Of a stretch of DNA of 64,000 bases, positions 16,884 to 21,301 are shown piece by piece. Numbering within the stretch: the stretch's first letter is position 1; every line of letters starts with the position of its first letter. The position numbers and the translations under genes were made by a program. Where the stretch lies: assembly GCA_963666565.1 (NCBI GenBank), contig OY762911.1, positions 2,176,001-2,240,000 of the forward strand, in the 5' to 3' direction. Source of the DNA: Thermoanaerobaculia bacterium. GTDB lineage: Bacteria; Acidobacteriota; Thermoanaerobaculia; Multivoradales; Multivoraceae. Under the pieces are notes generated by a model. The model made no database searches. It saw only the letters and a program-made list of their open reading frames with translations, and was not told the origin of the DNA.

Positions 16884-17303
16884 CGCGCAGTGGACTCGCC
16901 ACCATCCCCCTGCCTAACGTTGAGCGGTGCTCCCGGCAAGGACGAGATCGAAACGAAAGGCGGCGGTCGGTGGCCTCGGCGTCGGAGGCGCGGGCAGAGC
17001 CAGAAGCAGACGGGCGCCGCGGCGAGCGAACGCAAGGCGGTTCTGCCTGGACCATCTGGTCGCTGCCGTCCGGCAGACAGGACACCGTCGCCGAGATGTA
17101 CGCCGGCTACATGCCCATGGTCACCGTCTCGATCCGGGAGAGCTCTGTTTCCGACAACGACTCGTAGTACGGGGACGGAGCGTTCTTGCTCCGACCGTAC
17201 GAGTCTGTGTCGCGCATGGCGCCAGACCACGCCATCTTCACCATCAATCCGGAAAAGCCGCCTATAGGTCCTGCAGAGGGCGCCATTTGGAACGGTCGCC
17301 AGT

Positions 17304-18485
17304 ATGAGAGAGCCATGGGTCGATGAGATTCATCGTGCTGCCGAACGGGGCGATGCCGACGAGCAGAGCAAGCTCGGTACGCTCTACAACGTCGGCACGG
17401 GTGTGCAGCAGGACGCCACGGAGGCGGTTCGCTGGTACCGCTTGGCCGCACAGCAGGGCCACGCCGAAGGGCAGATGCACCTCGGTATGTGCTACTTGCA
17501 CGGGCATGGCGTGCGTCAGGACCCCACCGAGGGGATTCGCTGGCTTCGCCTTGCCGCCGAGCAGGGCGACGCCCGCGCGCAGACGTACCTTGGCGCTTGC
17601 TACATGGACGGCGACGGCGTCCGGCAAGAGGCCACCGAGGCGGTCCGCTGGTATCGCCTTGCCGCCGAGCAGGGCGACGCCGACGCGCAGGTAAGCCTCG
17701 GAATCTGCCACATGGGCGGCGACGGCGTCCGCCAGGACGTCTTCGAGGCGGTTCGCTGGTTTCGCCTTGCGGCGGAGCAGGGTAACGCCGACGGGCAGAC
17801 AAACCTGGGAATCTGCCACATGCGCGGCGACGGCGTCCGTCAGGACGTCTTCGAGGCGATTCGCTGGTTTCGCCCTGCGGCAGAGCAGGGTAATGCCGCC
17901 GCGCAGACAAGCCTCGGAATCTGCTACGCGAACGGCGACGGCGTCCAGCAGGACGCCGCCGAGGCGGTTCGCTGGCTTCGCCTCGGCGCGGAGCAAGGCG
18001 ACGTGGACGCGCAGGAGGCGTTGGCAACGCTTGAGCCTCAAGGCGAGCACGGGCGCGATTCGCATGGACCAGGAAAGGCAGCGGAGGAACTGATTGTCAG
18101 TCTGGTGCGGAGATGGCCCAAGGCGACGAAGCTGGTGCGAAAGTTGAGCAGTCTGTTGCGGAAGTGGCCCGGGCTGCCGAAGTGGAAGAAGCGGCTGATC
18201 GGATTGGCGGCTTTTGTTGTCCTGATGTTGTTTGTGAGGTTGATTTACGGCCCATGGGTCGCCGGAGTACTGGTCCTGGTCATCTTCTTGTTGGCCGTGT
18301 CGGTCTTCGCGATTTGGTTTGGTTGGATTTACTTCATTACGGGCTGGAACATTGTCGAATGCCGAGGCTGCGGTCGGTCGATGTTGCTGCACCACTTCAG
18401 AAAGCAGCGCGGCTGCCTGAGCTGCGGCACGTCCCTGGAGCCGGTGCCAACCGGAGAACGCGGGTCTTTCTTTGATCGCTTCTAG
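17304..18485 (+). CDS. Sel1-repeat protein with C-terminal TM helices and a CxxC..CxxC Zn ribbon
   Basis: Six 36-aa (108-bp) repeats 'A.RW.RLAAEQG...AQ..LG..Y..G.GV.QD', two to three hydrophobic segments, CRGC and CLSC. Confidence 0.85.
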   Translation: MREPWVDEIHRAAERGDADEQSKLGTLYNVGTGVQQDATEAVRWYRLAAQQGHAEGQMHLGMCYLHGHGVRQDPTEGIRWLRLAAEQGDARAQTYLGACYMDGDGVRQEATEAVRWYRLAAEQGDADAQVSLGICHMGGDGVRQDVFEAVRWFRLAAEQGNADGQTNLGICHMRGDGVRQDVFEAIRWFRPAAEQGNAAAQTSLGICYANGDGVQQDAAEAVRWLRLGAEQGDVDAQEALATLEPQGEHGRDSHGPGKAAEELIVSLVRRWPKATKLVRKLSSLLRKWPGLPKWKKRLIGLAAFVVLMLFVRLIYGPWVAGVLVLVIFLLAVSVFAIWFGWIYFITGWNIVECRGCGRSMLLHHFRKQRGCLSCGTSLEPVPTGERGSFFDRF

Positions 18486-20349
18486 ACTCCTTGAACAAGG
18501 GGCGTCTTAACAGTTGAGTCAAGTTTGGTTCGGGGTGTCCGTGTCGATTCGGCGTGACGGAGGTCGGCCTCAGGCTGCGAGTCGCTGTCCTCGCCAAGCT
18601 CTTTGGACCTCGCGGTCGTAGCTGGCGACGGTTCTTCGTAGCCGGGCGTTGGCTTCCGGGTCGAGGGTGGCGGACATGACGGGGCCGAGCACTCGGGCGT
18701 GGGTCCGGTGGTAGGCGAACGCTACGCGCAGTCCCCAGTCGGTGATCCGGTAGCGGTGGGTGCGCGGAACCCGTTCGACGATTCCCCGCAGTCGCAGTCG
18801 GCGCAGGTCGTAGGTCATGCGGGAGGGTCCGTAGCGGTCCGGCGTGAGTCCGCACAGACTGGCGACCGCGGGCCGCAGGTCGCGGTTGCGGAAGCCGTTG
18901 GGCAGGAGGCTGAAGCGCAGCAGGGCGGCGAAGAGACTCTGCACCCTGCGGTCTCCGAAGCGAAGCGCCGAAGCGCGCTGACCCGAGATGCACCGCGGAC
19001 GGTGCAGATCGTCGAGCGTTTCGGCTCCGAGCAGACAGTCGTGGCTGAGAGTTTGGACGCCGAGCAGGCGTCGGTTGGCGGCGAAGCCGACCTTCTTGAG
19101 GTCATCGAGGTTTCTCAGCAAACGACCGACATCGAAGTCGTAGGTGTCGTTGATCACCGTCTCGGTGCGCAGGGCGCGCCCTTCCTTGTGGTACTGCTTG
19201 ATGCGCGAGTGCTTGTAGTCGACGTGCAGCGACGGGGAGACCCCGTCGGTAATGACGCGGGTGCGATACCGCGAGGGGGTGCGTCGCGTGACGCGGCGCT
19301 TGAAGATCAACTGCACGTGCTCGGGCCGTCCCATGTCGAGGTGCTCGCGCAGCACCTCCTCGAAGAAGACCCGACCCTGCACCGGGCGGTCGAAGACCTG
19401 GGTCAGGGCGAATTCGGCCTGGAGGATCGAGACGGCGTAGCGGATGCCCCGCCGCCGGTCGCCGGCGGAGAACGGATGCGGCAGGCGAGCCAGCCACTTG
19501 CGCAGCAGCGCGTCGATCTTGTCCGCGTCGAGGCCGTCGGCGAGCCGCTGCATCGCCTCCGGGTCCGAGCAGCGCAGGATGCCGTTGTCCAGCGCCTCGT
19601 ACTCGATCCCCCGCTTGCTCAACTGGCGCTTGAGGTACTCGTGTCCGTTGATGCACAGCTTGGCGTTGTAGGGGAAGTACGAGCAGAACTTCAGGAAGAA
19701 CGGACCGAAGTCGTCGTCGAACACGTAGAAGTAGTACTGGTTGACCATCGCCGTCGAGTGCACCAGCCACGGATAGCCCGCGTCGGTCGCCGAGTCGTAA
19801 CGACGCTCGGTACGCAGCACCCGAGCCTTCTCCTGCGCCTTGCCGACGTACAGCACCCCCTCGCCTCCATGCCACCGGCGAAGGTACTCGCGGGTGCGGT
19901 CGTCCTTGCGCTCGCCGCGCCGAAACGGGACGATGTCGATCCGATGCTGCCGCGCGTAGCCCTTGATCGCGGCCACGAACCGCCTCGTCATCGGCGCCAT
20001 CAGCACCGACGACGGCACCTGCGCGCCCCGCACCTCCCGGAAGAACCAGGCCGCGCCCGCGCCACGCTGAAGCACCGGTACGTAGACGTTGAGGTACATC
20101 CGATCGACGCACTCCAGCGTCAACGACACATGCTCCTCAAGAACCTCGGCTGCCGTGCGTGCTACCTTCATCAGCGGACTCCGGTCGATGGGCTTCTCAC
20201 CGGCCAGCTTAAGGCCACCTTCGCCGCAGAGCGACAATACGGCGGATTCACTCCGCAGCTGAAGCAGCGACCGGAGTCCGATCGACGCCAAGGCCGAGGC
20301 CGACCACCGCCGCGAACATGCTCGTCGGTCTGAGGCGAAGCCTCGTTAG
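18482..20349 (-). mobile_element. Putative IS-like element without terminal inverted repeats (CTAA...CTAG ends)
   Basis: Single ORF with a structured 5' non-coding region and an AT-richer 3' end motif AAACTTGACTCA...CTAG abutting the Sel1 stop codon. Boundaries are inferred. Confidence 0.5.
18570..20171 (-). CDS. Uncharacterised putative transposase / replication-initiator-like protein with C-terminal winged HTH
   Basis: 533 aa, Arg-rich. 'RIKQYHKEGRALRTETVIND' recalls the Y-x-K..R-x-E motif of Rep_trans/gpII initiators. 'FRNRDLR...MTYDLRRLRLRGIVERVP..RYRIT' looks like a wHTH. Confidence 0.6.
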   Translation of the reverse strand: MKVARTAAEVLEEHVSLTLECVDRMYLNVYVPVLQRGAGAAWFFREVRGAQVPSSVLMAPMTRRFVAAIKGYARQHRIDIVPFRRGERKDDRTREYLRRWHGGEGVLYVGKAQEKARVLRTERRYDSATDAGYPWLVHSTAMVNQYYFYVFDDDFGPFFLKFCSYFPYNAKLCINGHEYLKRQLSKRGIEYEALDNGILRCSDPEAMQRLADGLDADKIDALLRKWLARLPHPFSAGDRRRGIRYAVSILQAEFALTQVFDRPVQGRVFFEEVLREHLDMGRPEHVQLIFKRRVTRRTPSRYRTRVITDGVSPSLHVDYKHSRIKQYHKEGRALRTETVINDTYDFDVGRLLRNLDDLKKVGFAANRRLLGVQTLSHDCLLGAETLDDLHRPRCISGQRASALRFGDRRVQSLFAALLRFSLLPNGFRNRDLRPAVASLCGLTPDRYGPSRMTYDLRRLRLRGIVERVPRTHRYRITDWGLRVAFAYHRTHARVLGPVMSATLDPEANARLRRTVASYDREVQRAWRGQRLAA

Positions 20350-20524
20350 AGGCTTGCCGTAAGGGGCAGCGCCTCGGCGCGGTCCCGGGTCTCCCACATC
20401 ATCATCGGCAACTCCTTCAAGTGCCAGCAGCGGGCCGTCCTGGACGTGCCGTCGAGCGGCTCCTTGAAGCAAGGCCGTCGGTGCTCCGGCATCCGGTCAG
20501 GGTGGGGGTAGACTCTGCGCTGCC

Positions 20525-21301
20525 ATGCTCGGCTACGACGACCTTTTCCGACTCGACGGCAGGACGGCCGTCGTCACCGGCGCGTCGTCCGGCCTCGGCG
20601 TCGTCTTCGCGCGGGCGCTGGCCGCGGCTGGGGCTTCCGTCGTCGTCTCGGCGCGGCGGCTCGACCGGCTGGAGCAGCTTGCCGCGGAGATCGAGGCCGG
20701 CGGCGGGCAGGCCCTCGCCGTCACCTGCGACGTTGCGAGCGAGCAGGACGTCGACGCGCTCGCGGCGAGGGCGGTCGACCGTTTCGGACGCGTCGACGTG
20801 CTGGTCGCGAACGCCGGCGTCTCCGACCCGCGCCCGGCCGAGCAGGAACCGCTCGACGTGTGGCGGCGGGTCGTGGCGGTCAACCTGACCGGCGTCTTCC
20901 TGTGCAACCGCCGGTTCGGCGCCCTGATGCTGGAGCGGGGATCGGGCTCGATCGTCAACATCGCGTCGGTGCTCGGTGTCGTCGGCGCCGGCCAGATTCC
21001 GCAGGCGTCCTACGCGGCGTCCAAGGGCGGCGTGGTCAACATGACGCGCGAGCTCGCGGCCCAGTGGGCCCGGCGGGGCGTGCGGGTGAACGCGATCGGC
21101 CCGGCCTGGTTCGAGTCCGAGATGACCGAGGAGATGTTCGCGTCGGACCAGGGCGTGCGCTGGATCCGCCGCAAGACGCCGATGGGCCGCCCCGGCCGCG
21201 GCGAGGAACTGGCCGGCCCCGTCGTGTTCCTGGCCTCCGACGCGTCGAGCTACGTCACCGGCCAGACGCTGCTCGTCGACGGCGGCTGGACCGCGATCTA
21301 G
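20525..21301 (+). CDS. SDR oxidoreductase
   Basis: TGASSGLG, YAASKGG, VDGGW. Confidence 0.9.
   Translation: MLGYDDLFRLDGRTAVVTGASSGLGVVFARALAAAGASVVVSARRLDRLEQLAAEIEAGGGQALAVTCDVASEQDVDALAARAVDRFGRVDVLVANAGVSDPRPAEQEPLDVWRRVVAVNLTGVFLCNRRFGALMLERGSGSIVNIASVLGVVGAGQIPQASYAASKGGVVNMTRELAAQWARRGVRVNAIGPAWFESEMTEEMFASDQGVRWIRRKTPMGRPGRGEELAGPVVFLASDASSYVTGQTLLVDGGWTAI

Follow-up and report, generated by a model that had tools for sequence, protein, structure and literature searches.

The insertion sequence (IS) considered here occupies positions 18482–20349, on the minus strand, of a 64,000-nucleotide stretch of the genome of a Thermoanaerobaculia bacterium (GenBank assembly GCA_963666565.1, contig OY762911.1, positions 2,176,001 to 2,240,000; hereafter, the window). 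Its single gene (18570–20171) encodes a protein of 533 amino acids, read from an ATG with a GGAG located 7 nt before it, and homologues of this protein begin and finish at the same places. A first-pass annotation of the window had described the open reading frame (ORF) as standing alone on the strand opposite to its neighbours, and both the Sel1-repeat gene that adjoins the element (17304–18485; Pfam Sel1, E = 1.3e-64) and the short-chain dehydrogenase gene on its other side (20525–21301) are indeed on the plus strand. The element probably belongs to a previously unclassified and very widespread family of ISs (approximately 1.76–1.87 kb) whose transposase combines a tyrosine nuclease of the TATA-binding protein (TBP) fold with a winged helix-turn-helix (wHTH), and which insert strictly into CTAG.

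Boundaries, mobility and target of the element

A six-frame search of the genome to which the window belongs (G000; 4.79 Mb, 70% G+C) identifies six copies of the gene, five of which are identical in protein and one of which is 98% identical. Element boundaries were set by base-by-base comparison of these six loci and their flanks, oriented alike. Identity is limited in every pair to the region from -178 to +1689 relative to the ATG, which gives a common block of 1868 bp with unrelated flanks, and in the window this block ends at precisely the two coordinates, 18482 and 20349, that the first-pass annotation had proposed. The 1868-bp repeat is exact in five of the six copies. On the coding strand the block starts with CTAACGAGG (CTAACGAGGCTTCGCC in a longer reading) and ends with ...AAACTTGACTCAACTG...GGAGTCTAG (CAAGGAGTCTAG in a longer reading). 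The left terminus is the CTAA at 20346–20349 and the right terminus is the CTAG at 18482–18485, a regenerated target that includes the TAG stop codon of the plus-strand Sel1 ORF, as had been noted in the first pass. There are no terminal inverted repeats, the two ends having only CTA in common. Unitigs (Logan) from public sequencing runs break at 18482 in runs X1, X3 and X4 and at 20349 in X1 and X4, and the depth of the element is approximately 5–7 times that of its flanks in unitigs of four public runs, consistent with six copies; no RNA run is listed among those that contain the sequence.

The element is mobile, and its distribution in the genus is patchy. In a first sample of 24 other genomes of the genus, the protein is present in 2; the element DNA occurs in 4 of 41, one being G050, where a 91%-identical element has three full copies; genomes of the genus without the gene are also without the element. 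Comparison with relatives reveals empty sites. At the site of copy L006 (the G000 copies are labelled L001–L006), three of five relatives hold a single CTAG (...CTGCG-CTAG-TGGTAGTCGATC...) where the occupied site reads ...CTGCT-[CTAG...element...TTAG]-TGGTAGTCGATC...; the fourth relative (G005, L151) has CTAGTGCTAGTG, and the fifth diverges and is not comparable. The site of L001 is CTAG in two of three relatives and CCAG in the other. The flank of L004 belongs to a paralogous gene family, and six of seven paralogues in G000 have 4 nt in place of the 1868-bp block. Together with the empty sites, these 4 nt indicate a net insertion of 1864 bp into a CTAG, with one regenerated CTA. The choice of site is not a matter of chance, as CTAG is tenfold under-represented in G000 (1299 seen vs 13107 expected from base composition), and this depletion combined with the exact repeat in five copies makes the observation more than coincidental. 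Searches for the empty site were uninformative for the window copy (the Sel1 side is not conserved across the genus), for L002 (only 160 nt are conserved) and for the G050 copies against G000 (the intergenic DNA is replaced), and the empty window site is not among the joints listed for contigs of the four runs. The six copies, the patchy occurrence and the empty CTAG sites bear out the suspicion that the element is mobile and multi-copy: the gene is not single-copy and syntenic among relatives, its homologues have conserved ends, and by Pfam and NCBIfam it falls in no known IS family.

Several observations concern individual sites. The CTAGTGCTAGTG of G005 is a 6-nt doubling without an element, where the three relatives have CTAGTG once, and may be a footprint. 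Copy L001 has the same kind of extra 6 nt, reading CTAGTC/CTAA...CTAG/TC, where the slash marks the edge of the element. L004 lies within a member of a gene family of approximately ten copies, and L005 lies approximately 30 nt from a repeat of approximately 145 bp that has many copies in G000 and in the genus. In G000, CTAA, TTAG, CTAT and TATA are also strongly depleted, and CTAC and GTAG are not.

The left junction provides the first constraint on mechanism. The left end is CTAA in all six G000 copies and CTAG in the G050 element, as in most relatives, and over 57 insertions with recognisable ends the fourth base is A in 28 and G in 29. Because this base travels with the element, a plain duplication of the 4-bp CTAG target is excluded, and that candidate was rejected. 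The junctions are compatible with duplication of TA or CTA, with one-sided insertion, or with an exchange within CTA. Two rival explanations are built on these junctions. It is quite unlikely, in our view, that the element is a conventional IS duplicating TA (or CTA) in CTAG in the manner of IS630/Tc1, in which case acidic residues (e.g. D23, E114, D152, E253, D345) would be catalytic and the tyrosine described below would not be the nucleophile. The target of IS630 is the TA within CTAG, and occupied sites of the form C-TA-[element]-TA-G facing empty CTAG sites follow exactly that pattern; the complete lack of terminal inverted repeats does not. The other rival is a site-specific recombinase that forms a double-stranded circle with a CTAR core and exchanges strands at the central TA much as IS110 or IS607 elements do, without replication and with an optional role for the tyrosine. 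The same core at both junctions and in the target, a fourth base that is inherited at the left end alone (as expected if crossover takes place 5' of it) and the lack of inverted repeats are all features that such an enzyme would produce, and we regard this as an unlikely explanation largely for reasons that come from the fold and the flanks.

Arrangements of neighbouring copies bear on the same question. In G034, two tandem copies have one CTAG in common, and in three cases a copy has entered the terminal CTAG of a related element, with both orientations represented; both the shared core and the free orientation would fit a recombinase. The origin and terminus of G000 were placed at approximately 0.72 Mb and 3.2 Mb by GC skew, and the orientation of its six copies relative to replication is 3:3, which would fit TA duplication. 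An IS608-like lagging-strand bias was rejected on this 3:3 distribution (n = 6).

The flanks of the element are not equivalent. Of 57 insertions, 15 have a CTA no more than 12 nt before the left end, lying in strings such as CTACTAG, CTATAG, CTAGGCT and CTAGTC, and 3 have a TAG no more than 12 nt beyond the right end. The same filler, an extra GCTATAG, is found at two G050 copies in different sites, and it looks as if these were flanking bases carried along from an upstream CTA. Fillers confined to the left are what would be expected if a polar process resembling rolling-circle replication started or ended imprecisely on one side. The CTATAG-like strings left of some copies also resemble TA-TA excision footprints, as duplication of TA might leave, but they occur on the left side only, where a palindromic target should give symmetry. 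Likewise, a polar process accounts better than the symmetric exchange of a recombinase for fillers that occur only on the left and for those that pass from copy to copy. In many copies, the extras consist of an additional CTAG, CTAC or CTAT with 1–11 nt upstream of the left CTAR (CTACTAG/CTAG, CTATAG/CTAG and CTAGTC/CTAA are examples), and they have been observed at L001, L031, L047, L048, L062–L065, L069, L087–L089 and others.

Conserved anatomy across lineages

A one-genome-per-species scan found 585 relatives. The 80 that were kept, assigned by record titles, come from Vicinamibacterales, Thermoanaerobaculia, Bryobacterales, Terriglobia, Gamma-, Alpha-, Beta- and Deltaproteobacteria, Actinomycetes, Chloroflexota, Planctomycetota, Verrucomicrobiia and Gemmatimonadota. 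The ends of eight sets of elements were defined independently by copy comparison: those of G000 (6 copies, 1868 bp), G034 (9 copies, 1763 bp), G050 (3 copies, 1871 bp), two sets from Vicinamibacterales (A, 5 copies, 1867 bp; B, 4 copies, 1865 bp), and sets from Bryobacterales (5 copies, 1832 bp), Terriglobia (7 complete copies and 1 truncated copy, 1829 bp) and an actinomycete record (2 copies, 1811 bp). All 41 complete copies start with CTAR and end with CTAG. The ends are asymmetric in all eight lineages and inverted repeats occur in none, which extends to the family what the first-pass annotation had read from one copy. Elements of other phyla whose proteins share 49–80% identity have the same anatomy, consisting of a 29-nt left end with a hairpin, a AAACTTGACTCAACTGT box and a terminal CTAG.

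The left end, a probable recognition site (20321–20349 in the window), has the consensus CTARCGRRGCTnnGCCYCARMCCGACGAG, in which 21 of 29 positions are invariant in the eight lineages, and conservation collapses past nt 29. It includes a hairpin or palindrome, GAGGC-TTC-GCCTC (20332–20344), the stem of which is kept while the loops vary. In the 5-bp stem GAGGC/GCCTC, the actinomycete element has both sides altered in a compensatory way (GGGGC/GCCCC, the one double change seen), and G034 has a single A.C mismatch. When the terminal 90 nt were folded as single strands, the energies were no better than those of shuffled sequences (z = -0.69 to +0.39); consequently, the hairpin is proposed on comparative grounds only. 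At the right end, the eight lineages share the box AAACTTGACTCAACTGT located 29–45 nt from the tip (18510–18526), a CAAGG and the terminal CTAG, the box being the best-kept part. The 5' leader between the left end and the gene (20172–20320) is weakly conserved in the alignment. Scans of the element for promoters and terminators and against Rfam found nothing meaningful, with no Rfam match above threshold.

A number of further observations were made on the family. The transposase frame is open through the whole 5' leader (20172–20348) up to the TAA in the terminal CTAA, giving an open frame of 591 aa, and translation reading through from outside would stop exactly at this first codon-sized unit of the element. 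In a subfamily with the right end GGACTCTAG (L094, L099, L100, L103–L111, L123 and L128), a C directly follows the CTAG in 9 of 11 copies (10 of 12 if the GGACACTAG variant is included), and other subfamilies are without preference; this C may be part of the element, or else the target may be a longer CTAGC. Two G023 copies (C1:2886196-2887790 and 4009522-4011116; 85% and 76% aa identity) have the same frame break near residue 360, and a G046 copy (L049) is interrupted at element position ~1540, where approximately 1.5 kb of other DNA intervenes. G000 also contains short gene-less elements of 138 bp (C1:1761758-1761895) and 180 bp (C1:3781711-3781890), as well as decayed ones near 4451247, 3924050, 3774165, 1750043 and 4377816. 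The short elements start like the left end of the IS, finish with a right-end-like ...TCTAG and have a genome-wide REP-like repeat inside, and they are probably derivatives resembling miniature inverted-repeat transposable elements (MITEs) that are mobilised in trans. In runs X2–X4, contigs of low depth (2.7–5.6) join 18526 to 20316 or 20321, which links the last 45 nt of the right end with roughly the first 30 nt of the left end. The 18526 side of this join starts exactly at the conserved right-end box, and the supporting sides measure only 22–30 nt; the join could represent a miniature element or a relative in another organism. Finally, 17073–17201 and 20367–20505, which flank the Sel1 gene and the IS in the window, match parts of another multi-copy repeat of the genus, and elsewhere these two parts lie approximately 150 bp apart in the opposite order (e.g. 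G000:C1:3296070-3296483).

The probable transposase family and its predicted active site

The 533-aa protein has no family above threshold in Pfam (none at E ≤ 1), NCBIfam or PHROGs, the last of which returned only two matches of unspecified function (E 0.04–0.27), and none of 27 family members has a Pfam match at E ≤ 0.1. This agrees with the earlier view that no characterised IS family is involved, as none of the families in Pfam or NCBIfam accounts for the protein. Neither the protein nor the family profile retrieved a nuclease or a Rep protein from the PDB sequences, where only uS2 and HTH noise appeared at E ≥ 0.04; a protein atlas held only clusters of "hypothetical protein." Homologues are nevertheless abundant. 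Among the 120 matches listed from a search of 5.8 billion proteins, none has a Pfam family on record and the few named ones are called "hypothetical protein," and an exhaustive search of representatives found 11,019 clusters at 50% identity with E ≤ 1e-3, and 1236 with E ≤ 1e-30. A tblastn search of plasmids matched 27 records (Rhodococcus, Burkholderia, Mycobacterium and others), which are hypothetical wherever an annotation is shown, apart from one weak match of 24.6% under an ArsR-family regulator. Many homologues lie on contigs of approximately 1.8 kb, as is typical of collapsed repeats.

An alignment of 27 full-length members with identities down to 29% reveals a set of invariant residues: D23, R24, E114, Y147, G156, F159, P167, N175, H177, N196, Q251, E253, F290, K325, Y327, R335, D345, Y454, L456 and L459. 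That several of these are acidic is also what duplication of TA by an acidic catalytic site would lead one to expect. The motif K325-Q-Y327-H-K329...R335-T-E337 (19161–19199) is invariant across these diverse members, and a KQYHK..RTE-type motif, with variation allowed at the first and fifth positions of the pattern, is found in 131 of 135 full-length homologues. The C-terminus is almost always [L/I/M/V]-A-A: 121 of the 135 homologues end in AA and 97 in LAA, as does the window protein (aa 531–533; 18573–18581). Such an ending resembles the end of an ssrA-type ClpXP degradation tag, and by this analogy the transposase may be a built-in ClpXP substrate.

The structure of the protein was predicted with AlphaFold2 using the family alignment, both at full length (pLDDT 87, pTM 0.78) and for residues 1–381 alone (pLDDT 90.4, pTM 0.88). 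The model consists of an N-terminal domain with a TBP-like double β-sheet, predicted to be catalytic (aa 1–380; 19032–20171), followed by a PadR/MarR-like wHTH (aa ~382–513; 18633–19028), in line with the C-terminal wHTH of the first-pass annotation. The full-length model has no Foldseek match in the PDB at E ≤ 1e-3, and its VIA list was dominated by the wHTH until the N-terminal domain was folded separately. With that domain alone as the query, Foldseek ranks the Rep_trans rolling-circle initiator RepSTK1 (4CIJ) first, and the four chains of this entry take four of the first five places (E 3.4e-4 to 1e-3, probability 0.94–0.99); Rep_trans proteins are the only nucleases among the best VIA matches. 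Against viral models (BFVD), the domain matches giant-virus TBPs, VETF-like proteins and inovirus Rep proteins, including A0A345MNV4, which is named as a Rep_trans protein carrying PF02486 in PMC13107129. This fold weighs against both rivals introduced above. As regards duplication of TA, the confident model differs from the RNase H fold, Pfam and NCBIfam returned no transposase family (DDE, RNase H-like or other), and no DDE transposase is among the matches listed in the full-length or N-domain fold searches. The fold is equally unlike those of serine, tyrosine or DEDD recombinases, and its known TBP-like relatives nick single strands (PMC4797284 and PMC5714925).

The arrangement of the invariant residues on this fold resembles that of Rep_trans enzymes. 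As set out in PMC5714925 and PMC4797284, the motifs of these enzymes comprise an Asp (N'), RxD, T/SxYxG, YxKxxE and W/LxRxE, with the tyrosine on a β-strand. In RepDE the R-x-Y-x-K is formed by R189, Y191 and K193, the R-x-E on the following strand by R212 and E214, and the metal ligands are E214, the D142 of motif I (RxD) and the D46 of motif N'. The ORF of pT181 RepC reads RLDLAFD, TKYFG, RIYNK and WRVE at the corresponding motifs. In the model of the IS protein, K325-Q-Y327-H-K329 lies in the strand formed by residues 322–329 and R335-T-E337 in the adjacent strand formed by residues 333–340, while D23 (codon at 20103–20105), a proposed metal ligand and counterpart of motif N', is on the first β-strand. 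Thus D23, K-x-Y-x-K and R-x-E occur on strands in the same order as in Rep_trans, and the Y-x-K..R-x-E context noticed in the first pass is both invariant in the 27 members and parallel to Rep_trans motifs III and IV (PMC4797284 and PMC5714925). The VIA alignments start at model residue 15 for RepSTK1 residue 1 and at model residue 16 for RepDE residue 39; if the strand is ungapped, D23 would be predicted to fall on D9 of RepSTK1 and D46 of RepDE, both of which are named as metal ligands in PMC4797284. As candidates for the Rep_trans metal triad, D23 and R335-x-E337 are present and invariant, and the RxD is not evident.

It is very improbable that the ORF is a DNA-binding passenger or regulator, made up of a TBP-like saddle and a wHTH, in an element moved by an enzyme encoded elsewhere. 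Non-catalytic TBPs are the best structural matches, the catalytic role of the protein is a prediction from the model, and short gene-less derivatives with similar ends exist. However, the ORF is the sole gene of the element, gene and ends travel as one unit in many phyla, and genomes of the genus that lack the gene lack the element too. The invariant residues are polar or charged and are grouped in Rep_trans-like motifs rather than forming a generic DNA-binding face, and gene-less derivatives are what a trans-acting transposase would be expected to leave.

Proposed mechanism and relation to known systems

With the fold and the conserved residues in place, a mechanism can be proposed in which Tyr327 acts as the nucleophile. 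For the chemistry of this side chain, the position of cleavage within CTA, the strandedness of the process and the choice between copy-out and cut-out, we infer the following course. First, the winged helix, the β-saddle or both would bind the right-end box and the conserved 29 nt at the left end. Next, Tyr327, flanked by K325, K329 and R335 and assisted by a metal held by D23, E337 and probably E253, would nick one strand inside CTA/R at the element ends to form a 5'-phosphotyrosine link. The ends would then be joined into a circular, probably single-stranded intermediate with a junction made of CTA and the left fourth base, and the donor would be resealed to CTAG or copied. Finally, the same chemistry would insert the strand into another CTAG, giving CTAR...CTAG with no real target duplication. 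Such a mechanism would yield the junctions observed, namely the left CTAR with its inherited base, the right CTAG, the net addition of 1864 bp and the CTAG shared by tandem copies.

Several points weigh against this proposal. The CTAR...CTAG junctions and the empty CTAG sites are equally expected from TA duplication in the IS630/Tc1 style or from a crossover in the core. The model makes no detailed prediction of the 6 additional nt in L001 or of the fillers on the left. Like those 6 nt, the element-free CTAGTGCTAGTG that G005 carries at the L006 site is unaccounted for by a simple single-strand model, and the 3:3 orientation likewise counts against that model. A circle junction joining right end to left end is not among the joints listed for contigs of the four runs, which counts only weakly, against the recombinase rival as well, as contigs drop rare forms. 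In the VIA fold search of the N-terminal domain, non-enzyme TBPs outscore Rep proteins. Clear counterparts of Rep_trans motifs I (RxD) and II were not found, Q251-x-E253 being a mere candidate, and the spacing from Tyr to R-x-E is 8 residues vs 21 in RepC. The PF02486 HMM is silent on the protein, the 27 members and the genome, the family-profile search of PDB sequences returned no Rep protein, and hhalign of the family against an alignment of the RepC family, a shallow one (80–93% identical to the first sequence), gave a probability of 0.1%. The initial description of the protein as Rep-initiator-like therefore holds at the level of fold, TBP-like with Rep_trans as the top Foldseek match, and fails at the level of sequence homology. 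The lack of a PF02486 or hhalign signal places the protein outside Pfam Rep_trans, with which, going by the model, it appears to share a fold and part of an active-site grammar.

Even so, Rep_trans proteins (PF02486; RepC and RepD of pT181-type plasmids, RepSTK1, and the MOB_T relaxases NicK and Orf20 of ICEBs1 and Tn916) are the closest systems. The likeness includes a TBP-like catalytic fold, a Tyr on a β-strand in a basic-x-Y-x-K context, an R-x-E on the next strand, a first-strand Asp, a separate DNA-binding module and a short specific sequence beside a small hairpin (PMC4797284 and PMC5714925). In contrast to Rep_trans proteins, the IS protein shows no detectable sequence similarity to them and no recognisable motifs I and II, its catalytic domain is larger by approximately 100 residues with insertions, it carries a C-terminal wHTH, and it resides on a chromosomal multi-copy IS rather than on a plasmid, phage or integrative and conjugative element (ICE). 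A second likeness is to Rep-Arvir (DUF7845) of archaeal viruses and plasmids, such as RepSNJ2, as described in PMC13107129. These proteins also have a TBP-fold N-terminal domain followed by a MarR/PadR-like wHTH, are tied to Rep_trans by structure only, and have an acidic residue near position 25, a Tyr late in the domain and an acidic residue shortly after it; Y283, E25 and E303 are experimentally essential, and the BFVD matches reported for Rep-Arvir overlap those found here (PMC13107129). The two differ in that Rep-Arvir belongs to archaeal replicons and the present protein to a bacterial IS, and in that the Tyr context is KHYYM vs KQYHK in the IS protein; Pfam DUF7845 has no match to the IS protein at E ≤ 1, and the comparison is one of descriptions.

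Among transposable elements, IS200/IS605 elements (HUH Y1) likewise have no inverted repeats or duplication, a subterminal hairpin, a short fixed target and apparently seamless junctions. They differ in having an unrelated fold and a transposase approximately one-fourth the size of the IS protein, and, unlike theirs, the CTAG target is palindromic and regenerated at both ends, with a 3:3 orientation. Like IS91, ISCR and Helitron elements (HUH Y2), the present family has no inverted repeats or target duplication, a tetranucleotide target at one end, distinct roles for the two ends and occasional carry-over of flanking bases at one end (PMC5714925 for part of the IS91 details); in IS91 the carry-over is at the terminating end. 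Those elements have an HUH/RRM fold with the Tyr on a helix and a GTTC/CTTG target rather than CTAG. No Y1 or Y2 HUH transposase was matched in Pfam or NCBIfam, and an RRM-like fold is not among the matches listed. IS630/Tc1-mariner elements share insertion into CTAG with TA at both junctions and are distinguished by terminal inverted repeats and a DDE transposase, neither of which is found in the element. In IS110/IS1111 elements, the target is element-specific and set by a non-coding RNA; here, there is no DEDD match in Pfam, the same CTAG target is used in all lineages, and no Rfam match exceeds threshold.

On balance, we lean toward the interpretation that these are the first transposons driven by a TBP-fold (Rep_trans- or Rep-Arvir-like) tyrosine nuclease, with seamless, polar, rolling-circle-like, single-strand insertion into CTAG and perhaps restrained by an LAA degron. 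Such elements would be a further transposase class beside the DDE, DEDD, HUH, serine, tyrosine-recombinase and Cas1 classes, and a new transposase class is the most likely outcome. In the open literature, no transposase of this fold and no description of this family was found, and searches linking the Rep_trans or TBP fold with transposases, or CTAG with repeat-less ISs, returned nothing relevant; a prior naming in ISfinder is possible. A 2017 review gives plasmid replication, phage replication and conjugative transfer for Rep_trans and covers only IS91-like elements and helitrons under transposition (PMC5714925), and the 2026 Rep-Arvir paper gives the same range (PMC13107129).

Only a small number of transposase classes exist, and every addition has brought advances in mechanism and technology. 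The IS200/IS605 elements led to TnpB and the IS110 elements to bridge RNAs. If the interpretation favoured here is correct, Rep_trans-type enzymes, so far only plasmid and phage initiators and ICE relaxases, would acquire a role in transposition, and bacterial enzymes would be linked to the archaeal Rep-Arvir architecture. The family would also represent a compact, single-protein system with a fixed, palindromic 4-bp target that is apparently left intact. For the bacteria that harbour these elements, the consequence would be a large annotation gap of more than 11,000 clusters (at 50% identity) of hypothetical proteins, which spans Acidobacteriota, Pseudomonadota, Actinomycetota, Chloroflexota, Planctomycetota and others; the IS copies concerned are missed by current pipelines and are consequently invisible to IS counts and to the interpretation of assembly breaks.

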